DNA from: a virus
Taxonomy: Duplodnaviria; Caudoviricetes
DNA length: 64,000 nt
IMG/VR virus record: IMGVR_UViG_2531839014_000003
Location: 1 to 64,000 of that record
Direction: 5' to 3' (one strand)
The notes under the pieces were generated by a model that made no database searches, was not told the origin of the DNA, and worked only from the letters and a program-made list of their open reading frames with translations. Position numbers and translations under genes: made by a program. Shown here in pieces: positions 38,418-64,000 of the stretch (the stretch's first letter is position 1; each line of letters begins with the position of its first letter).

Positions 38418-39233
38418 TTATCCCTCTCCCACATAAACCAGCCTGTCAATATATTCTCTACCTTCATCTTTAAAAATCGGAATATTCATATCAATAATCC
38501 ACTCATTCTCAGATTTAGACGAATCACGTAACTGACATAATTCCGTAGAACCATTTGACTTAACTACAATTTTATTTTTTACAACACAATTCCCACGTTT
38601 CTGATATGTAGGTAGAGCGTTCCAGTTGATGCCTTTCTGTACCATAAGCATATCCTGAATCTCATTACATGATTTATTCTGTAATTCTTTATGAGAGAAA
38701 TTAGCCTGACCGACCATTTGAATTGAATTGCGACTAGCATCTAATTGCCGCCAATACAGGCAATTCGTAACTTCTTCTTTGGGAACGTTAAAGCAGCGCG
38801 CATCGAACATCGCCTTATCAAACTTTTTCATATATACTTCTGCATCTGAATCATATTCATATACGTTCTCTTTAAATATTTTATTAAAAGCCATCGTCGC
38901 TATACTCGCTGCTATGCTACACATTTTCTGCACTTCATAATCAAACCATGCTGAAGAAGTAAGTTTTTTATAATCCACAAGCACTAAAGTAATTTCATCA
39001 GACTGAGTATAGCCGAGTACACACCCCTGAATATTTTCACATAGATACTTTGTTGTATCCTGCATTGTTCTAATTAGAATCTCATCAAAAGGTCTTTTAA
39101 AACCTCTTGTAAAGGTATGAAAGCTGCGCCCATCTAACCTCACCAGTACAGGGCAACGTCTCATAAGTTTTGTTTTGGGAATCTGTTCGTAAAATGTTTT
39201 CATACGAACGCCTAAATCGTCTTTTACTGACAT
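38418..39233 (-). CDS. tRNA(His) guanylyltransferase Thg1-like protein
   Basis: RLDGRSFH.FT, YTQSDEI, FDAR, WRQ.DA.RN. Confidence 0.92.
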   Translation of the reverse strand: MSVKDDLGVRMKTFYEQIPKTKLMRRCPVLVRLDGRSFHTFTRGFKRPFDEILIRTMQDTTKYLCENIQGCVLGYTQSDEITLVLVDYKKLTSSAWFDYEVQKMCSIAASIATMAFNKIFKENVYEYDSDAEVYMKKFDKAMFDARCFNVPKEEVTNCLYWRQLDASRNSIQMVGQANFSHKELQNKSCNEIQDMLMVQKGINWNALPTYQKRGNCVVKNKIVVKSNGSTELCQLRDSSKSENEWIIDMNIPIFKDEGREYIDRLVYVGEG

Positions 39234-54906: not shown

Positions 54907-55052
54907 AAATATCACTCCTTTGCTATTTAATTCTCTTTTATTGGAAATTACACACTAGATTAAGTATGTTTAGAATTGTATGATAACCTTAATCGTCGGA
55001 TTATCAGTCGTAATTAGGAGTAGATCAGACTATCTACTTTTTAATTCTCTGT

Positions 55053-55511
55053 TTAATATTCACTCAATGCATAGAACCATTCAATCTTTCCATCAAGTTC
55101 CTGCACCTGTTTTCTCAATTCATTTTCTTTCTTCTTACTATCTGTTCTCCGACATTTCTTCCACAAATCGTCTCTCTGTTTCTTCAGTTCAAGGTATTCT
55201 TCCGTCCTGTCTTCCTCACCAATCACAACAATCTCAATAGGTTCTCCACAATGAGGACAGAACTTAATCGGATAATAATATTCATTCTCCCATTCATCTT
55301 CCCAATCTTTAACTGTTTCAGAAAGCCAAGAAGCAAAATGAGGAAGTGTAATATTGTCATCGTCATAAGTGTCGTAGAAATCATACGTAGATGATTCTTC
55401 CGTAAATTCTATTGTTCTGTTTTTAGTAATTGCTTCACAGCAATATTTGAATGGTTTGTACTTATATGATACAGAGCCATCGAATTTTAGTTTAATCAAT
55501 TCAATTTTTAT
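55053..55511 (-). CDS. Hypothetical protein with FCPHCG zinc motif
   Basis: YCC..FCPHCG; probable ATA start behind GGAGGT. Confidence 0.55.
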   Translation of the reverse strand: MKIELIKLKFDGSVSYKYKPFKYCCEAITKNRTIEFTEESSTYDFYDTYDDDNITLPHFASWLSETVKDWEDEWENEYYYPIKFCPHCGEPIEIVVIGEEDRTEEYLELKKQRDDLWKKCRRTDSKKKENELRKQVQELDGKIEWFYALSEY

Positions 55512-56073
55512 CTTTCTCACCTCCAGTAAGTATCTCATCCAATGTTACAGGTTCATAATTCCATAGCATACACCCGACATTGTGAATTTGATTTGTAAAT
55601 CCTTTATCATTCAGTTCTTTTGCTATCCTCAATTCCTCATAATGCTCTTTCGTATTATGTGAATGACCATGAAGTAAAATGGAACCATAATAATGTGCGT
55701 TATAGAACGGCATAAAATAATGACTCAAGATACATCTCTTAACTTCTCCGTTTTGAAGAGTTACCTTAATGTCATCATAATCTTTAATTGCTTCAAACAA
55801 ATCCTTATACTTCCTACTTGCATTTCTAAAATCATGGTTTCCAAGAACTAATCTCTTATGTCCATTGAGTTTCTTTAAGAACTCAATATGTTCATCACCT
55901 TGTTTCCACGTATAATCACCTAGAATGTATACAGTATCATCTTTCGATACTTTACTATTCCAACGTTTTAACATTTCATTACACATGTCTTCCATTGTAT
56001 TCCACGGTCTATTATCAAAACGCAGCACATTATTATGAAAGAAATGAGTGTCACTAGTAAAAAGTACCGCCAT
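55501..56073 (-). CDS. Calcineurin-like metallophosphoesterase
   Basis: SDTHF.H, LGD, GNHD, HGHSH. Confidence 0.9.
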   Translation of the reverse strand: MAVLFTSDTHFFHNNVLRFDNRPWNTMEDMCNEMLKRWNSKVSKDDTVYILGDYTWKQGDEHIEFLKKLNGHKRLVLGNHDFRNASRKYKDLFEAIKDYDDIKVTLQNGEVKRCILSHYFMPFYNAHYYGSILLHGHSHNTKEHYEELRIAKELNDKGFTNQIHNVGCMLWNYEPVTLDEILTGGEKDKN

Positions 56074-56088
56074 CTAAACACCTTCTTT

Positions 56089-57450
56089 CTATTCCTCAAT
56101 CCAACCGTCTGTAATTCCAGTCATATAATAAATCAAATCTTCTTTTGTATTATTTAATTCTCCGTCTATGACTTTATTTAGAATTACGTTTAACCAATAA
56201 CCGATATCTTTTCCTTCTTTTATCATCATTGTTTTCTTGACATCATTACCATTAATGACTAAATCTTTCAATGAAAAACATGGTTTCTCTGATAATACTT
56301 CTTCTAATAATGCTTTAATATCAAATACTTTCTGTAATCTTCCATTCTCGTAATCAGGATTTTGACCTTTAATATCTGCTTTTCGTACTTGAAGAAGTCT
56401 TCTAAACTGCAATTCTCCTATCTTATTTAACCATCTCTTGATATACTTTTTGCCAACTTCAAAAGTAGCGTCATGATAATAAATCAGTTCTACAACAGAA
56501 TTTCTAGTATCATTGTCAAATCTCATACGTTTCATAATTTCATCTGTCATATCCGCACTAACTCTACCATGACCTTTGAAATGCCTTGTTCCATCTTCAT
56601 CGTCTTGATATGAATGTGGTTTACCAATATCGTGAAATAATACAGCTAATTTTATAATTAACTCTTCATCTTCACAGTTCTCAATCGCATGAATTGTATG
56701 TTCCCACACATTGTAATTATGATATGGATTGTTCTGTTTAAACTCAAACATATCTTTTAACTCTGGAATAAATAATGCAAATACTTCATTATATAAAACC
56801 ATCTGTACACAAAAACTATTTGAAGATACTATTTTGCAGAACTCGTTATTGATTCTTTCAATAGATATATTCTCTAAATTTTTATATTGTTTATGAATTT
56901 CCCAATCTGTATCAGGCATCATTACAAAATCAAGTTGAGAAGCAAATCGAATTGCTCTAAGTATTCTTAGAGCATCTTCCGAAAATCTATCTTTTGCAGA
57001 ACCAACACAATTTATCTTGTTATATTTAATATCTTCCATTCCACCAAAAGGGTCAATCAAACCAGCTTCGTCATTATAAGCCATTGCATTGATTGTAAAA
57101 TCCCTGCGCTTCAAATCTTCAATGAGATTATCTGTAAAAGTTACGATATCTGGTCTTCTATGATCAGAATAATCTCCATCCAGTCGATAGGTTGTAATTT
57201 CATATGGTTCGCCATTCGCAACAACTGTAATTGTTCCGTGTTGCAATCCAGTTTCAATTACCTTCTTATTTTTAAAAATGTCTAACATCTCCGAAGGAGT
57301 TGCTGACGTACAAATATCCCAATCACTAGGTGCTCTACCTAAAATACTATCTCTAACACAGCCTCCGACTACATATGCCTCATAGCCATGTTCTTGTAAA
57401 ATATGAATCAAATCATATGCATCTTGCGGTATGCTTATTTTAAAATTCAC
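56089..57450 (-). CDS. cca: CCA-adding tRNA nucleotidyltransferase with HD domain
   Basis: VGGCVRD, DWDI, RRDFTINA, EDALRILRA, ERI, HDIGK. Confidence 0.92.
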   Translation of the reverse strand: MNFKISIPQDAYDLIHILQEHGYEAYVVGGCVRDSILGRAPSDWDICTSATPSEMLDIFKNKKVIETGLQHGTITVVANGEPYEITTYRLDGDYSDHRRPDIVTFTDNLIEDLKRRDFTINAMAYNDEAGLIDPFGGMEDIKYNKINCVGSAKDRFSEDALRILRAIRFASQLDFVMMPDTDWEIHKQYKNLENISIERINNEFCKIVSSNSFCVQMVLYNEVFALFIPELKDMFEFKQNNPYHNYNVWEHTIHAIENCEDEELIIKLAVLFHDIGKPHSYQDDEDGTRHFKGHGRVSADMTDEIMKRMRFDNDTRNSVVELIYYHDATFEVGKKYIKRWLNKIGELQFRRLLQVRKADIKGQNPDYENGRLQKVFDIKALLEEVLSEKPCFSLKDLVINGNDVKKTMMIKEGKDIGYWLNVILNKVIDGELNNTKEDLIYYMTGITDGWIEE

Positions 57451-58468
57451 CTTTTACCACCCTTTCATTAACACTTGCAGTAAATTCCTTAATTCTATCA
57501 TAATCAGGATTGTCTGGTAAACTTGTATTCTCTTTTGCATATTCCAATTTCTTTTCAAAATCATCTACCATTTCATAGAATTCTGGAATAGGTTGGTTAT
57601 TGTCGTCAAGATATTTGCCATTACGAATATCCATAAGCACGTCATGATCTGCTTCTCTATATGTTATTATCTTCTCTTTTTCAAGAATATCTAAGCACAT
57701 AAGATATAAACGAATTAGATGCATCATATGCTTTCCGAGTTTACCATGTTCGATTGCGTTTTTATTTCTCTTTCCAATCTTGGAGTAATCATTAACAACA
57801 TTATTCATTTCAGACCACATGGCTTTGTAATCTCTCAATGGATAATGATGTAAATTCACATCCATAAAGATTTCAGAATCATATTCTTCCTGTTCTGACT
57901 TATCAATATACAATTTGATACTGTCTTCACTAAACGAAAAATACTTTTCTGGAAATGTATGATAAGCGTTCATAATACTGTTCAGTATATGTTTCTCTCT
58001 TTGTTCTTGATTTACAAGTCTTACTGCTTTGTTATCGAGTCTACGAAGCTGCGCTGTCGCATATCCTCCAAATGAATAAACCGCTCTCTTAGATAAGAAT
58101 AAATGTGCATTATCAAGTAATTCCTGACCTATATGAGATACATAGAAATAGTGTTCTGGCTTATTACCAAGCATCTCAATTGTATTAGGATTTACATTAC
58201 TCAATAATGCAACAAGTTTATTGAATGAATAAATCGTGGTATCAGTCGCTTCATTTACAAACTGCTCAAAATTCTCATTAGTAAGAATCTGCATTTTACT
58301 ATTCAAAGAACAACCACGAATATCCAAATCACTATTCTCATTGTTTGTTCCATAAGCATAACTGCCACCTAATGTAAGAAGTATGATGTTATTACCTAGA
58401 TTTCTGTCAGTTTTAAGGAATCCATACTCATCTGATCGTAATTTTTCTTTAATCTTTTCTAATGTCAT
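57440..58468 (-). CDS. Pol-beta-superfamily nucleotidyltransferase, RlaP-like
   Basis: GSYAYG.N...SDLDIRG, NPN.IE, K.MMHLIRL. Confidence 0.8.
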   Translation of the reverse strand: MTLEKIKEKLRSDEYGFLKTDRNLGNNIILLTLGGSYAYGTNNENSDLDIRGCSLNSKMQILTNENFEQFVNEATDTTIYSFNKLVALLSNVNPNTIEMLGNKPEHYFYVSHIGQELLDNAHLFLSKRAVYSFGGYATAQLRRLDNKAVRLVNQEQREKHILNSIMNAYHTFPEKYFSFSEDSIKLYIDKSEQEEYDSEIFMDVNLHHYPLRDYKAMWSEMNNVVNDYSKIGKRNKNAIEHGKLGKHMMHLIRLYLMCLDILEKEKIITYREADHDVLMDIRNGKYLDDNNQPIPEFYEMVDDFEKKLEYAKENTSLPDNPDYDRIKEFTASVNERVVKGEF

Positions 58469-58613
58469 ATTCTTTTCTCACTTTCTGCTTGTATTGTTAT
58501 CTATTTTACATTATAATTATCATTAATGGTAGTCACCTAGACATGCTTTACTTATTAGAAACGAGCCTCCCATTCAGCTTACAATGCTACTCATACAAAG
58601 GAGGTGATAAGAC

Positions 58614-58715
58614 ATGGGCAATGTACCTATGGCGCATGTCCGTGCGTACTGGCGGTTCCGCTGTTATCAGTGGGAATTCGTACATGAACACCTGCGTCAC
58701 TATCCAACCCGATAG
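58614..58715 (+). CDS. 33-aa basic/aromatic small protein with own promoter
   Basis: TTGTAT-17-TATAAT (58489-58517), AAAGGAGGT SD, MGNVPMAHVRAYWRFRCYQWEFVHEHLRHYPTR. Confidence 0.6.
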   Translation: MGNVPMAHVRAYWRFRCYQWEFVHEHLRHYPTR

Positions 58716-59009
58716 ATGATTGCAGTGGTGACTATCTATAACATGGTTCATTTCCCATATTACGAATCCATCTCAGGACTTAAAATGTGGCTTTTAAGGT
58801 ACTAATAGAAATCTAAGCGAATTAATAATGTTTACCACTAATGCCAATATGCAAACCACTAAACTATAAAGTGTTCCATCCATTATAGATTCTTTTTTAA
58901 TCTTTTTGTACACCGGATATCCAATGAGCCAAATTATATAAATCAATACACTAATCCAAAATATCACCTGCATTTTCTTTTCCTTTCAAATATATACAAA
59001 ATCGTTAAT

Positions 59010-60047
59010 TCATTCCTTTAACACCACCACAATATATTTGTCCATCTCATGTCCCAATTTCACACAATTTCCATGAGATATGTGATTTTTCCATGCGTTA
59101 TATGATTCATCAAACTTTTCTCTATTTAATTTTCCTTTTTTAACCAAATAAGCCATTCTCTTAAATCTCTTTTTAGCAACTCTTTTATTTTCGTTTTTCA
59201 ACTTTCGTATAACCTTACCATCAATTGTAACGTATGTATGAAATCCACAAAATTTAATACCATTCTTGAAAGGTATAATCTGTGTCTTTCCATTTAACTC
59301 AAGTCCGAGACTATGAGCAAATTCATATATTGTAGACAGACACCATTTCGCATATTCTTTTGATTCAACAATCAAGTAGAAATCGTCCATATACCTTCCA
59401 TAATATTTCACACCTAATTCTCCTGTGATAAAATGGTCAAGTCCCGATAAATATAAAAGTGCAAACACTTGACTTAATTGATTTCCCAATGGAAGACCGA
59501 ACCCCTTAGTGCTATCAATAAACTTCTCACATAACCAGTATACATCGTCATCCTTTAAAAAATATCGCACCATATCCTTCAATATGTCATGGTCAATACT
59601 GTAAAAGAATTTGCTAATATCAGCTTTTACAATCCAACAATCATATCCGTATTTATGATATGCTAGATACATTTGTGCTCTAAGCCAATCCAAACCAAAT
59701 AAAGTCCCCTTTCCCACTTGTCCAGCAAAGTTATTTGGTACAAATTCAGTTTTTAAACACGGCAAGAGTACGTTGTCACATAAACTATGTTGCACTATTT
59801 TATCTACAAATGAACCAGATTTTATTATTCTTTCTTTTGGTTCATAAACCGTAAACTCATTATACTTTCCAACTTCATATGTCTTTGTTTCCAATCTTCT
59901 CTTTATCTGATGAATTCCATCAAGTGCAGTAATTTGAAATCGTTGTCTACTTTTAGAAAATCCTTTACCCGATTTAGATTTTATATATGCTTGATACAAA
60001 TTGCCAAAATCAGTTATCTTCTCGAAATCAGTTTTACTTTCTATCAT
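59010..60047 (-). CDS. DGR reverse transcriptase
   Basis: KADISKFF, GLPLGNQLSQ, RYMDD, F.GF. Confidence 0.96.
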   Translation of the reverse strand: MIESKTDFEKITDFGNLYQAYIKSKSGKGFSKSRQRFQITALDGIHQIKRRLETKTYEVGKYNEFTVYEPKERIIKSGSFVDKIVQHSLCDNVLLPCLKTEFVPNNFAGQVGKGTLFGLDWLRAQMYLAYHKYGYDCWIVKADISKFFYSIDHDILKDMVRYFLKDDDVYWLCEKFIDSTKGFGLPLGNQLSQVFALLYLSGLDHFITGELGVKYYGRYMDDFYLIVESKEYAKWCLSTIYEFAHSLGLELNGKTQIIPFKNGIKFCGFHTYVTIDGKVIRKLKNENKRVAKKRFKRMAYLVKKGKLNREKFDESYNAWKNHISHGNCVKLGHEMDKYIVVVLKE

Positions 60048-60070
60048 AATATTGTATTCCTTTATATTTA

Positions 60071-60092
60071 TCCTGCCTCTTGCGAGACAGGA
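60071..60092 (-). other. GNRA-capped hairpin in the TR-RT spacer
   Basis: TCCTGTCTC-GCAA-GAGGCAGGA on the minus strand. Confidence 0.6.
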
Positions 60093-60166
60093 AGGGTTGT
60101 CTATTCTTTTGATGATGGGACTCTAATTTCGGTGTTTCTCCTACTTTCTTTCGTCTTCCATCCCAG

Positions 60167-60250
60167 AACGGGCGAACACCCCTATCGTTCCAACCACAGT
60201 CGTTGTAGTTCACGTTGCCGTTGGAGTTGACATACTGGATGTAAGAGGCC
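60167..60250 (-). repeat. DGR template repeat (TR)
   Basis: 84-bp AAC-rich copy of 60755-60838. Confidence 0.96.
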
Positions 60251-60273
60251 ATACAATAGACAACCCGCAAAGC

Positions 60274-60636
60274 TCATCTCTGTTTATCTTTCGAGCGCCA
60301 AGCTATGGTCATGTACTTTATATCATCAATTTGCTTTTGCCAATATGACACCGTGTCAGTTCCAATCAAATTCATGTTCATTGATAGTTCTACATAACAC
60401 GATAATTTGTCGCAGCAAGATATTGCTTTAGTCTGAAGCTCTAGTCGTTCTGATTTTGAGGTTTCTAATTTCAGTCTATTTGCATCAAGCAAGTATTCAT
60501 AAATATCCATACAACGATTTTGAATACGTTTTATTAAAATCGAGTGTTTGACTGGATATCTTTTTCTGTTTGATGTAATTGTCATAGTATATTCCATAAG
60601 TTTTATAGATTTTACAATGACATCAAGTTCTGCCAT
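60274..60636 (-). CDS. avd: DGR accessory variability determinant (four-helix bundle)
   Basis: 120 aa, YP..H..L..RI, AN, W motifs; lies between target and TR. Confidence 0.88.
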   Translation of the reverse strand: MAELDVIVKSIKLMEYTMTITSNRKRYPVKHSILIKRIQNRCMDIYEYLLDANRLKLETSKSERLELQTKAISCCDKLSCYVELSMNMNLIGTDTVSYWQKQIDDIKYMTIAWRSKDKQR

Positions 60637-60675
60637 GAATAAGTTCCTACCTCCATTTGTTATTGTCCAGCCACC

Positions 60676-60694
60676 GGCACGGCTTCGCCATGCC
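60676..60694 (-). promoter_or_regulatory. DGR target-recognition hairpin
   Basis: GGCATGGC-GAA-GCCGTGCC downstream of VR. Confidence 0.75.
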
Positions 60695-61500
60695 TAGTGC
60701 ACTTGCCTCCCGCTAGTTTTTTCAGATACAAAGATTGAAGATTTAATGATGCAAAACGGGCGAACACCCCCATCGTCCCAACCACAGTCGCCGAAGCCCA
60801 CGTCGCCGCCGGAGTCGACACACCGGACGTAAGAGGCCCCGGTGCCTGAAGGTGTACTGTCTGGTGTAGCAAGCCACCACCAGCTATCACTCTTAGGAAT
60901 ACTCTTCCTACATTCCCTATATAAATCCAGTGTTGGGATTGCAAGAATATCTCCCTCAACAATGCCATAATCATCTAACCCGTCAAGAGATAATAAATCT
61001 AAAGCAATTGGCACGAGTCTGTCTCCAAACTCTTTTCTTAAGTCTTTAGCTAGCTCACTATCCACAAGCTCATTGCGAATGTTGGATTCTGCATAATTGT
61101 TATTTTTTCCAAAAGTAGATTCCTCAAGAAAACCATCAAGCAAATAGTATGTACCTTTTTCATCGCTCTTAATTGGTGTCCACGCACGTCCACACATAAC
61201 AACAAATTTATCTTTAAGATACTCTTTTACTGCTACACGAAAGTCAGCCTCGTATCTTCCAGGATCATCGTCGTACCAATCCGGAGTAATATCCTGATCA
61301 ACGATATATTCCCATTTGCCAATATCGACTGCCTTGTTTCCATCAGGTGGTACAAGTTCCGCTCTAACAAATGTCTTCGAAGCGTTAAAATGAGTATCTT
61401 CAATTCCAAGACTTTCTAACAAATCTGAATGACTATCGTTTCCTTCTGGTGCTAAGACTACTCTGTTCTTTAAAATAATTCCTGATTTAAATTTACACAT
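60694..61500 (-). CDS. DGR target protein with C-terminal CLec-like (DUF6273-like) domain
   Basis: WWWLATP...VRCV..GVRP C-terminus encoded by VR. Confidence 0.9.
   Translation of the reverse strand: MCKFKSGIILKNRVVLAPEGNDSHSDLLESLGIEDTHFNASKTFVRAELVPPDGNKAVDIGKWEYIVDQDITPDWYDDDPGRYEADFRVAVKEYLKDKFVVMCGRAWTPIKSDEKGTYYLLDGFLEESTFGKNNNYAESNIRNELVDSELAKDLRKEFGDRLVPIALDLLSLDGLDDYGIVEGDILAIPTLDLYRECRKSIPKSDSWWWLATPDSTPSGTGASYVRCVDSGGDVGFGDCGWDDGGVRPFCIIKSSIFVSEKTSGRQVH
60755..60838 (-). repeat. DGR variable repeat (VR)
   Basis: 70/84 identical to TR; all 14 differences at TR adenines. Confidence 0.96.
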
Positions 61501-62263
61501 ATTATTTATCTCCTTCTTTTATTTTCTATTTATTTTATTCTCTCTTATGACGGACAAAAATCCTGATTTCTTCCTATTCGCTTTTAATTATAGTAGTTCC
61601 ATTTTTCAATCACTTTATCCCCTCTAATTCTTAATTCTTGCTACATATTTAGTGTCAATCAAAGCAACAAGATTTTCCGTTGATTTTCCATTCACATAAA
61701 TGCTTCTCATAATATTTAATGGAATTGATACACAATCTCCATTACTGAGAAACCAAATGTAAAACTTATCATTCAAAACCTTTATGGAATGAATTCTTTT
61801 ATAGAACTGTTTTAAATCTGATTCTAATTCTCTTTGCATCCAATGATAAAAATCATATCTGTCCATACTCAATTCGTTCATATTATATGCTCCTTTGCTC
61901 TTTTCATAATAATCACCCTGTTCTTTGTGATAATATTTTAGTTCATATAAAATATTCGTTTCTTCCGTTTTTAGGCATCAAGGGTATTTGGCGAAATCTT
62001 CATCACCTTCAAAAACATCCAGGAACACATTTTCAATAGCCTGTTCAATATGGCTCATACCAGTTTCAGTATCACATTGTTCCATTAACTGTTGTGCAAC
62101 GTACTCAGCAAATTCCTGTCTTTTTCCTTTCTTGACTTTAATGTAATTTTCTCCATCTTCACTATAATTTTCTGGGCTATTATTAAAAGCATTGATAAGA
62201 TTACTAATCGGAATTTCCCATCTTACAACCTTGTCCGTTACCGTTGCTGTAAATCCATTTTCT

Positions 62264-62950
62264 TCAAATTTTTTCATTGCATATCTCCTTATAACTTAAA
62301 ATTTTAATATTTAATGGAATATACTCATAGTCTTTGAAAAAATGTTCCTTGTCATTTGGTGTCACATGGAATACCCAACATGGGCAACTCCGTTTATGTT
62401 CTTCATATTCCAGCCACCATCCAACACAACATTCACCATCTTCACTCTGTTTTTTTCTTTCAACAGTAGACAGAATAATCACATAGTTCTTGTTTGGTTT
62501 AGTTAATAAATCTTTATGATACTCTAAAACTTGCTCATAATTATCACACACACCATAACAACCACCATTTAATAATTTTTCTTCACAGTTATTTTTAATA
62601 AACGCATCCCCATTGAAAATATATCCATCATGTCTATATACACCTTTGTCATATCTTTCAAAATATGATTTCTCGCTACTTAAATCTACACCGTTTATTT
62701 GTGCAATCATTCCACAAATATCATCTGGTTTTACTGTATAATACATTAAATCTTTTAACATCTTTACTTCCTCCTTTGAAATCGAACATTTATATGTTAT
62801 TGTCTTTTTCTCTTTTAACTTTCTCTTTCTCATTTCTTTTTCTTCACACATGTCGCAGCGAGACAAATAATGAGGGCACGGTTTATCATCAATTCCACAT
62901 ATTGGATAATCTAAATCAAGAGTCCAATCACCAGGCATTTTTACCTCCAA
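62264..62950 (-). CDS. Hypothetical protein
   Basis: 228-aa ORF. Confidence 0.5.
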   Translation of the reverse strand: MEVKMPGDWTLDLDYPICGIDDKPCPHYLSRCDMCEEKEMRKRKLKEKKTITYKCSISKEEVKMLKDLMYYTVKPDDICGMIAQINGVDLSSEKSYFERYDKGVYRHDGYIFNGDAFIKNNCEEKLLNGGCYGVCDNYEQVLEYHKDLLTKPNKNYVIILSTVERKKQSEDGECCVGWWLEYEEHKRSCPCWVFHVTPNDKEHFFKDYEYIPLNIKILSYKEICNEKI

Positions 62951-63025
62951 TCTACTATAAAAGTAAAGATTCTTTTTGTTAATTATCTAGTATTTTTTAA
63001 AGTAATCTACAGAGTAATAGCACTC

Positions 63026-64000
63026 TATAGTGGCTCAGTTGTCAAGACAAAAATCTAAGATTTTTATAATGAACTGATATGGTTGATATGTAACGAGGAA
63101 CATGGGGAGGATAATGGAACACTCCCCAGATCCATATATGCATTAAGCTACATAAGGCAGAAGCATTGCCGGGTAGTAGCACTCAGCAGGCGTTTTGTAA
63201 TCAAGGGCAGAATGGCATCTCTCAAAGTTGTAGGTGTGGACATAACGTCCAATAGCAGATCTGGCTTCCTTGATGTTGTTATACAGTGTCAGATAAGCTT
63301 CTTCATACTTGAAGCTGCGGAACCAACGCTCAATCATGATGTTGTCAGCCCAACGGCTTTTTCCATCCATACTCTGACGGATACCATTTTCTTTTACAAA
63401 GTCAACATATTGTTGACTTGTGAACTGACAACCCTGATCAGAGTTCAAAATCTGTGGTTTTGACACAGCAAATGCTTTTTTAAGAGCATTGATAACCATT
63501 CTGGTATCAAGTGTATCATCGACTTCCCAGCCTACGATACAGCGGCTGTACCAGTCGATTACAGCAGTCAGATACAGAAATCCGTGTCTGATTGGAATAT
63601 ATGTAATGTCAATAGACCACCCCTGATTTGGAGCGTCTATGGCAGCATTTCGCAGAAGATAAGGACATACCTTTGCCTGTTGCATCCGCTTGGAAAGATT
63701 CATCTTAGGATAGATTGGGTAAATATCCATTTCATTCATATAGCGATGTGCTTTACGCCGTCCGACATGATAACCTCTATTCTGGAGCTGTGCAGACATT
63801 TGTCTTGCTCCCCATGTTGGATTGTCCGTATGAAGATGGTCGATAATCTCTTTACAAGCTAGTTCTTCATCTGATACAGGTGAAGTCTTGTAATAGATGC
63901 TTGTACGGTTGATATCAAGCAGTTTTGCTCCTACGGATGCCGGGATTTCTTTAGTCGTCAAAAGGTTTTGGACTAAACTTACTCTCGTAGTCAGGTCCAC
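63026..64000 (-). mobile_element. IS3-family insertion sequence (runs off the window)
   Basis: orfB plus terminal TATAGTGGCTCAGTTGTCAAGACA. Confidence 0.85.
63143..64000 (-). CDS. IS3-family transposase OrfB
   Basis: WSIDITY, NSDQGCQFTS, SMDGK..DN..IERWFRSFKYE. Confidence 0.93.
   Translation of the reverse strand: MDLTTRVSLVQNLLTTKEIPASVGAKLLDINRTSIYYKTSPVSDEELACKEIIDHLHTDNPTWGARQMSAQLQNRGYHVGRRKAHRYMNEMDIYPIYPKMNLSKRMQQAKVCPYLLRNAAIDAPNQGWSIDITYIPIRHGFLYLTAVIDWYSRCIVGWEVDDTLDTRMVINALKKAFAVSKPQILNSDQGCQFTSQQYVDFVKENGIRQSMDGKSRWADNIMIERWFRSFKYEEAYLTLYNNIKEARSAIGRYVHTYNFERCHSALDYKTPAECYYPAMLLPYVA

Follow-up and report, generated by a model that had tools for sequence, protein, structure and literature searches.

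A complete and naturally active diversity-generating retroelement with a single small target in a 165-kb prophage of Enterocloster/Lachnospiraceae

Diversity-generating retroelements (DGRs) are usually explained as switches of tail-fiber tropism. Bordetella phage BPP-1 carries a DGR with the order mtd-avd-TR-brt (TR, template repeat), an initiation of mutagenic homing element (IMH), and a downstream hairpin. Here, we describe a complete, standard DGR on the minus strand of a 64,000-nucleotide stretch of viral DNA (the window), which forms the first 64 kb of the 165,423-bp IMG/VR record IMGVR_UViG_2531839014_000003, a prophage assigned to the gut bacteria Enterocloster/Lachnospiraceae. Like the BPP-1 element, it displays the order target, avd, TR, and reverse transcriptase (RT), adenine-specific changes from TR to the variable repeat (VR) at codon positions 1 and 2, AAC codons, a GC-rich VR 3′ end that is one base off TR, a GC-rich hairpin behind the target, a C-terminal C-type-lectin variable domain, and an RT with [I/L/V]GxxxSQ and YMDD motifs. 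Unlike BPP-1, in which the tail-fiber tip is diversified, the target here is a 268-amino-acid (aa) soluble protein whose N domain has no fold match and whose gene sits among the early and replication genes of a 165-kb phage; the hairpin also differs in lying 57 nt past VR and in having a 3-nt loop.

Comparable targets have been reported from gut Firmicutes phages. Small DUF6273 DGR targets of unknown function occur in the Faecalibacterium phages Lelie and CP11 (PMC11792537) and as nd4_tgt2 and nd12_tgt2 (PMC10743442). These share with the window target a small size and a VR at the C-terminal end of a DUF6273/C-type-lectin domain. However, they are second targets beside a larger tentaclin or immunoglobulin-repeat target and have been discussed as receptor-binding proteins, whereas the window protein is the only target, adjoins avd-TR-RT, and carries a distinct 98-aa N domain. 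The DGR of Roseburia phage Shimadzu is experimentally active, and its VR2 lies outside the tail module in orf43, whose function is unknown; the alleles there seemed to be under weaker selection than those of the tail VR (bioRxiv 10.1101/575076). The likeness to the window DGR lies in the active diversification of a non-tail gene; unlike the window DGR, that of Shimadzu also diversifies a tail gene beside its RT, and its VR2 is remote. In addition, a class of nonstructural viral DGR targets is on record (PMC8144416). DUF6273 targets of unknown function and non-tail VRs in gut phages are thus already published and are partial precedents for the locus described here, which adds a naturally active DGR whose only target is a small soluble protein of an early-gene family. 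With its host genus identifiable, the locus is a clean system in which to study the benefit that phages draw from hypermutation of a non-tail protein.

Anatomy and natural activity of the retroelement

On the minus strand, the elements follow the order target, VR, hairpin, avd, TR, and RT, with the following features:

60694..61500, minus strand: DGR target gene, an open reading frame (ORF) (P0001, 268 aa; phrog_9958, E = 1e-30; DUF6273, 20.2 bits)
60752..60838, minus strand: VR, codons 221-249 of the target, an 87-nt repeat of TR with a GC-rich, IMH-like 3′ end
60676..60694, minus strand: GC-rich hairpin in the DNA fold, with an 8-bp stem and a GAA loop
60274..60636, minus strand: avd accessory gene (P0002, 120 aa; phrog_3206, "Avd protein of DGR," E = 1.6e-16)
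60255..60266, minus strand: closing helix, 5′ arm (12 bp), a perfect inverted repeat with 60094-60105
60164..60250, minus strand: TR, an 87-nt repeat with 20 adenines and six AAC codons
60106..60163, minus strand: spacer stem-loop, a conserved helix between TR and the closing-helix 3′ arm
60094..60105, minus strand: closing helix, 3′ arm (inverted repeat, RNA fold, covariation)
60071..60092, minus strand: hairpin immediately 5′ of the RT ribosome-binding site (RNA fold, covariation)
59010..60047, minus strand: DGR reverse transcriptase gene (P0003, 345 aa; RVT_1, E = 7.7e-15; phrog_1423, E = 2e-107)

TR and VR differ at 15 of their 87 positions. Fourteen of these mismatches (13 A>G and one A>T) are at TR adenines, each in the first or second position of its codon. 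The remaining one, C>T, is located at the 3′ end past an identical GC-rich stretch, the arrangement expected of an IMH/IMH* pair. The hairpin begins at the final base of the target stop codon; it is kept in the related loci L003-L006 and L172 and is missing from L171. Together with the GC-rich 3′ end of VR, it probably serves as a homing cis element. The RT carries LGNQLSQ at residue 187 and YMDD at residue 219, corresponding to the DGR-type motifs [I/L/V]GxxxSQ and YxDD, while all group II, retron, and DRT (defense-associated RT) models scored far below their cutoffs. The avd product was also detected with the NCBIfam model NF033474 (DivGenRetAVD), with an E value of 2e-7 and 31 bits, which is below the cutoff of 80. 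The locus therefore combines a TR/VR adenine bias, a DGR-type RT beside TR, an Avd protein, homing cis elements, and ongoing mutagenic homing, and it is a complete, standard DGR.

Natural activity of the DGR is evident from ENA contig L007, which runs collinearly with positions 63080..55000 of the window and differs from it at just 9 of 8,081 bases (99.9% identity). All nine differences lie in VR, each at a position templated by a TR adenine, showing that mutagenic homing is ongoing. Several natural VR alleles exist, and the other members of the exact-sequence clusters of the target, including a protein from E. clostridioformis, differ from the window protein almost exclusively within aa 221 to 249. 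A scan of the whole 165-kb genome that ignored TR adenines, a search already proposed in a sequence-only reading of the window that preceded this work, found TR and one VR only. Profile searches likewise returned no paralogue of either target domain, and the DGR therefore has a single target.

The RNA between avd and RT has a defined structure. A perfect 12-bp helix (60266-60255 with 60105-60094) closes around TR and the spacer stem-loop, and folding of the TR-spacer region gave a z score of −2.56. In an alignment of 13 relatives, 18 of the 43 predicted pairs stay paired despite changes on both sides. Compensatory changes were found at 5 of the 12 pairs of the closing helix and at 5 of the 7 pairs of the hairpin that precedes the RT ribosome-binding site. 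In the spacer stem, every one of the 10 pairs has at least one changed-but-kept pair (8 changed on both sides), and the loop sequence is invariant. The architecture of the avd-to-RT RNA region (60045-60285, minus strand) is conserved in relatives, and Rfam 15 holds no family that matches the DGR RNA region. By analogy with BPP-1, the avd-TR-spacer RNA would fold with the conserved helix closing TR, the RT-Avd complex would copy TR while misincorporating at adenines, and the resulting cDNA would take the place of VR, with the GC-rich VR 3′ end and the hairpin that follows the target as guides.

The target protein and its place of action

The target is an acidic protein of ~30 kDa (pI 4.6). It has no transmembrane segment or signal peptide (maximum Kyte-Doolittle value over 19 residues, 1.04), and there are no internal or fiber-like repeats in its sequence. 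It consists of an N domain (aa 1 to 98), a C-type-lectin/DUF6273-like variable domain (aa 99 to 256), and a short C-terminal tail. In an AlphaFold2 model based on 81 sequences (mean pLDDT [predicted local distance difference test], 95.5), aa 99 to 256 are predicted to adopt a C-type-lectin fold with VR (aa 221 to 249) near its C-terminal end. The 20 TR adenines are spread over 12 codons, which map to the surface of this domain, the part rewritten by the DGR. The closest fold to aa 99 to 256 is 9qa6_A, the N-terminal domain of an immunoglobulin A peptidase from Thomasclavelia ramosa (Z score of 14.5, root mean square deviation of 2.6 Å over 153 residues, 20% identity). As judged from the model, this similarity points to a Firmicutes lectin-like binding module; unlike the window target, 9qa6 is not the target of a DGR and forms part of a secreted bacterial protease, and a common fold does not imply a common ligand. 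The DGR variable protein TvpA (2y3c) was matched with a Z score of 8.0, and many C-type-lectin domains scored near 7. The Pfam DUF6273 model (PF19789) matches the window target below its gathering cutoff (20.2 versus 23.5 bits), while a precomputed PF19789 match is present in many close homologues.

The N domain also folds confidently when modeled alone (pLDDT, 94.6). Searches with it returned no fold match in the PDB (best Z score, 4.7), only uncharacterized viral homologues in BFVD, and ESM Atlas scores of 0.77, short of lead level. No match was obtained with the target sequence in the PDB, with the target in PADLOC or NCBIfam, or with Pfam on proteins sharing the N domain. The target family is large (1,444 matches in one search and 1,653 representatives in another) and modular: the C domain is found with other N termini, and the N domain is found with other C termini. 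The alternative C termini of the N domain are arrays of ~9-residue repeats (xxSxVxxMx; for example, in P0187, P0196, P0240, and P0269), for which ESM Atlas gave YdcK-type beta-solenoid repeats as a lead. This family of N-domain/beta-solenoid early proteins appears to be uncharacterized.

Three independent points of context favor a nonstructural target. The first concerns the genome itself, which is classed as a provirus with an estimated completeness of 91%. Its minus strand carries genes up to ~99.5 kb, including those for DNA polymerase, helicases, primase, ligase, and NrdD, as well as PAPS-reductase-like genes and genes for a methylase, a CCA-adding enzyme, and an RlaP nucleotidyltransferase. 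From ~99.7 kb, the large ORFs switch to the plus strand, and this region is taken to be the late arm. The target gene is located in the minus-strand replication and nucleotide-metabolism arm, ~38 kb away from the plus-strand late arm. In addition, two unrelated types of temperate prophage carry N-domain/beta-solenoid genes in their early operons, 2 to 5 genes from a cI/cro-type switch. In L184 and L185, the order is serine recombinase, cI-like helix-turn-helix (HTH) protein, small cro-like ORFs, N-domain gene, HNH, RusA, a DnaC-like gene, and YopX; in L188, it is tyrosine integrase, ImmA/HTH, DUF739 HTH, small ORFs, N-domain gene, and SSB. Finally, a related DGR occurs in an early module of L072, a 41.7-kb contig from a group of ~55-kb phages, whose RT is 59% identical to the window RT. 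Here, two tandem phrog_9958 targets, avd, and RT lie between anti-repressor/SbcC-like and RecT/SSB genes. Because of the early-arm position, the early operons that contain the N domain, and the related DGRs in early modules, we lean slightly toward the view that the target is made early and acts off the virion.

The sequence-only reading had described a target without a signal peptide or fiber-like repeats that sits among early genes, and the hydropathy maximum and early-arm position bear this out. Its further claim, that the DGR diversifies a nonstructural, intracellular binding protein, stands in part: the early-gene context favors a non-virion protein, which may act inside the cell. The target would then be a diversified binder joined to a conserved N-terminal effector or adaptor, acting off the virion, and the binder could act against variable host or competitor molecules. 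A more specific and tentative proposal, which we consider possible but would not bet on, is that of an intracellular early effector, in which the N domain acts as the effector or adaptor and the hypermutable lectin domain retargets it to changing molecules of the host or of rival phages, such as defense proteins. If true, the DGR would represent a phage-side "adaptive" counterdefense or takeover module. The link between the N domain and the beta-solenoid proteins of early operons provides a testable handle, and the most interesting question concerns the function of the N-domain family and why a phage hypermutates the binder attached to it.

Several considerations weigh against an off-virion role, which is read from gene context. 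The early position of the gene is compatible with a virion accessory protein, and phage decoration and fiber genes can sit outside the main late cluster. The lack of a signal peptide is uninformative because virion proteins lack one too. Moreover, the N domain is without known fold or function, and receptor-binding proteins are classically built in this very way, with a conserved N module joined to a C-terminal binding module that can be swapped. The target could be a virion-associated accessory adhesin (receptor-binding, decoration, or mucus-binding) that is encoded outside the late cluster and docks on the particle through its N domain, with the DGR serving host or environment tropism as in BPP-1. 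In line with this, the variable domain shares the C-type-lectin fold of Mtd-type and TvpA-type targets, the target weakly matches the "Hoc-like head decoration" PHROG through this same domain, and the C-terminal binding modules attached to the conserved N module are exchangeable. Published DUF6273 targets have also mostly been treated as structural or receptor-binding (PMC11792537, PMC10743442). However, an adhesin is difficult to reconcile with a gene on the early strand and in the early arm, 38 kb from the late arm, with no structural neighbor genes and no fiber-like repeats in its product, and with N-domain genes that lie only 2 to 5 genes off a cI/cro-type switch in two unrelated prophage types. 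The location of the related DGR clade in recombination and replication modules argues in the same direction, and we regard a virion adhesin as rather unlikely.

Borders and exchange of the retroelement

The sequence-only reading had placed the complete DGR between two junction sites and had suggested that it may move as a cassette. The two sites are 16-mers related to the palindrome TGAAA-N6-TTTCA:

61556..61571: junction-like site at the upstream border, with 3 mismatches to TGAAA-N6-TTTCA and the minus-strand core TCAGGA, located 56-71 nt ahead of the target ATG
58997..59012: junction-like site at the downstream border, also with 3 mismatches, its TGA being the RT stop codon

The 61556 site lies between the stop codon of ORF o85 and the Shine-Dalgarno sequence of the target, and both sites are thus at the expected intergenic or stop-codon positions.

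The motif itself is a real intergenic element of this phage. We found 4 exact copies compared with 0.48 expected and 22 copies with ≤1 mismatch compared with 9.6 expected. In the minus arm, 26 of 37 strong copies are intergenic, although just 16% of the arm is intergenic, and many strong copies start at a stop codon or ≤14 nt from one. T4-type promoter-early stem-loop (PeSL) modules flank shuffled accessory genes, and the motif described here resembles them as a short intergenic repeat that occurs at the borders of many accessory genes in a large phage and is associated with mosaic gene content. It differs from PeSL modules in being a 5+6+5 palindrome that often starts at a stop codon, and the comparison does not imply a promoter or recombination role.

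The two copies that flank the DGR could be chance matches in AT-rich intergenic DNA, without function, in which case the module borders would simply be gene ends. The two 16-mers agree with each other at 11 of 16 positions, but 49% of random 61-nt window pairs in the genome do equally well. Copies with 3 mismatches occur at 10.5 per kb (every ~95 nt), with 33 of them between 58.4 and 62.4 kb, mostly inside DGR coding sequence, and the TGA stop codon supplies three consensus positions for free. Both flanking sites exceed the limit of ≤1 mismatch in the motif arms. From the window alone, neither site is separable from chance. Comparison with relatives points the other way: several independent lineages of relatives have strong sites at these positions. 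At the upstream border, two lineages (L009/L010/L013 and L038/L039) carry copies with 0 or 1 mismatch at −75 to −69 relative to the target ATG, and the window copy is at −71. At the RT end, copies at offset 0 are perfect in L020, have 1 mismatch in L023, and have 2 mismatches in L021 and L029, while copies in L015/L016/L019 and L034 lie 7-9 nt past the stop codon. The background for a copy with ≤1 mismatch in these border windows is 2% upstream and 1.3% at the RT end. In addition, the core TCAGGA of the upstream site is identical in the window, L003-L006, and L172; these have three unrelated upstream neighbors, and similarity to the window begins at this site, making it the first conserved element in all three contexts. 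The RT-stop site and the L021 site likewise agree at 11 of 16 bases amid unrelated surrounding sequence. We therefore consider it doubtful, though possible, that the two 16-mers are chance matches. Of the earlier description, the anatomy, the element order, the positions of the 16-mers, and the RT stop stand, whereas the sites are at background level in the window and only partly rescued by relatives; the RT end of the closest full cassette, L172 (83% DNA identity), lacks a motif copy. Strong sites were present at DGR borders in 2-3 of ~8 lineages, compared with ~15% at accessory-gene junctions (26 intergenic strong sites per 176 called genes). This border rate is only somewhat above the general rate, and the DGR is therefore bordered like any other accessory module. 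For the DGR, the issue of the junction sites matters less than it does for the intergenic motif of the phage.

We observed better copies, with 2 mismatches, one gene further out on either side, at 58781-58796 after a 59-aa ORF and at 61948-61963 before an 85-aa ORF. Because these copies lie beyond the two small ORFs, any exchangeable unit might include them.

The 2.5-kb block that contains the DGR is conserved as a discrete unit. In the comparison with 35 large-phage relatives, DNA similarity starts ~15-46 nt upstream of the target ATG, ends ~20-30 nt short of the RT stop, and in no case enters the flanks, and no other shared repeat was found in the cassette flanks. In most of L008-L042, the slot of the cassette is 1.5-4.5 kb downstream of a block of MazF-like, sigma-factor, and DUF262 homologues, and the same is true in this genome (sigma-factor gene at 67971-68645 and DUF262/GmrSD_N gene at 66520-67950). 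The full cassette is present in the window, L007, L172, and L008-L042, and other relatives carry only parts of it. In L003-L006, the target and hairpin occur without an adjacent avd-TR-RT, with the breakpoint located right after the hairpin and no motif copy there, whereas L171 has the target without the hairpin and without avd-RT within 10 kb. G004 (L179; positions 50001-67000 of a 150.8-kb relative) contains two target homologues with identical VR 3′ parts, of which the first directly follows a DUF262 gene and one is followed by a GC hairpin. An RT was not detected in this 91%-complete record; either the two targets are orphaned or the RT lies in the part that is missing. The search for an RT in G001-G005 was negative throughout, a result that counts as absence only for G005, a complete 172.9-kb relative with terminal repeats that lacks both target and RT, as the other records are incomplete. 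These findings show that the target and avd-TR-RT are separable. Downstream neighbors change as well. In L008-L013, two alternative downstream flanks join within the final RT codons. In L172 (12505-16040), the DGR is immediately followed by an NAD salvage block with isochorismatase/nicotinamidase-like, phosphoribosyltransferase, NAMPT, and NAD synthase genes, which shows that the downstream neighbors change freely.

From these comparisons, we conclude that the DGR is a resident accessory module in a mosaic region, with neighbors and submodules exchanged among related phages, and that it is not self-mobile. The cassette keeps one syntenic slot and hence does not hop. The suggestion that it may move as a cassette is borne out insofar as the DGR is a discrete module with variable flanks; the syntenic slot, the degenerate sites, the siteless RT end of L172, and the occurrence of the target alone speak against it. 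The breakpoints in relatives, which the sequence-only reading had named as a check, gave a mixed result: homology starts at the site upstream, but breaks lie after the hairpin in L003-L006 and in RT codons in L008-L013. Two observations count against a strictly resident module, namely, that 79 of 80 relatives sharing RlaP have no RT within 7 kb upstream and that the flanks differ in all relatives; some module exchange clearly happens. Such exchange could in principle involve the whole DGR passing between phages by site-specific recombination at terminal TGAAA-N6-TTTCA sites. The motif is indeed enriched and intergenic and often starts at a stop codon, relatives carry sites with 0 or 1 mismatch at both borders (background, 2% and 1.3%), homology with three upstream contexts starts at the TCAGGA-core site, and the two internal junctions have no such sites. 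However, both window sites are at background level with 3 mismatches, L172 has no RT-end site, the downstream flanks of L008-L013 swap inside the last RT codons, the target occurs alone with a breakpoint after the hairpin, and the slot is syntenic across relatives. Moreover, no recombinase is linked to the sites here, and the search for an empty site between such flanks was negative, neither flanking ORF (o85 or o59) having a relative in IMG/VR. We consider whole-element exchange at these sites improbable. Taken as a whole, an active standard DGR that diversifies an early off-virion binder and resides in the genome as a nonmobile module is the reading that we regard as somewhat probable.

Host and neighboring genes

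The exact-sequence clusters of the target include a protein from Enterocloster clostridioformis genomes (WP_002588611.1, on a 5.68-Mb contig), and E. clostridioformis is therefore a likely host of the prophage. No close phage record was found by megablast. A sigma-70 promoter scan returned 25 promoter-like sites compared with 17.5 expected, and a terminator scan returned none; both scans were uninformative.

An IS3-family transposase gene (rve, rve_3, and HTH_21) is located 1.6 kb upstream of the DGR, at positions 63143-64000 of the window and on to position 64033 of the genome (L173:143-1033). Contig L007, with its 99.9% identity, stops at window position 63080, just short of this gene, as if the assembly had broken at a repeated insertion sequence. 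On its other side, the DGR adjoins a cluster of tRNA/RNA-repair-type genes (window positions 55501-58468 and 38418-39233). Its members beside the DGR encode the RlaP nucleotidyltransferase, the CCA-adding enzyme with an HD domain, and a metallophosphoesterase, and a Thg1-like tRNA-His guanylyltransferase gene lies further away. In relatives (L004), an RNA ligase is added to these genes.

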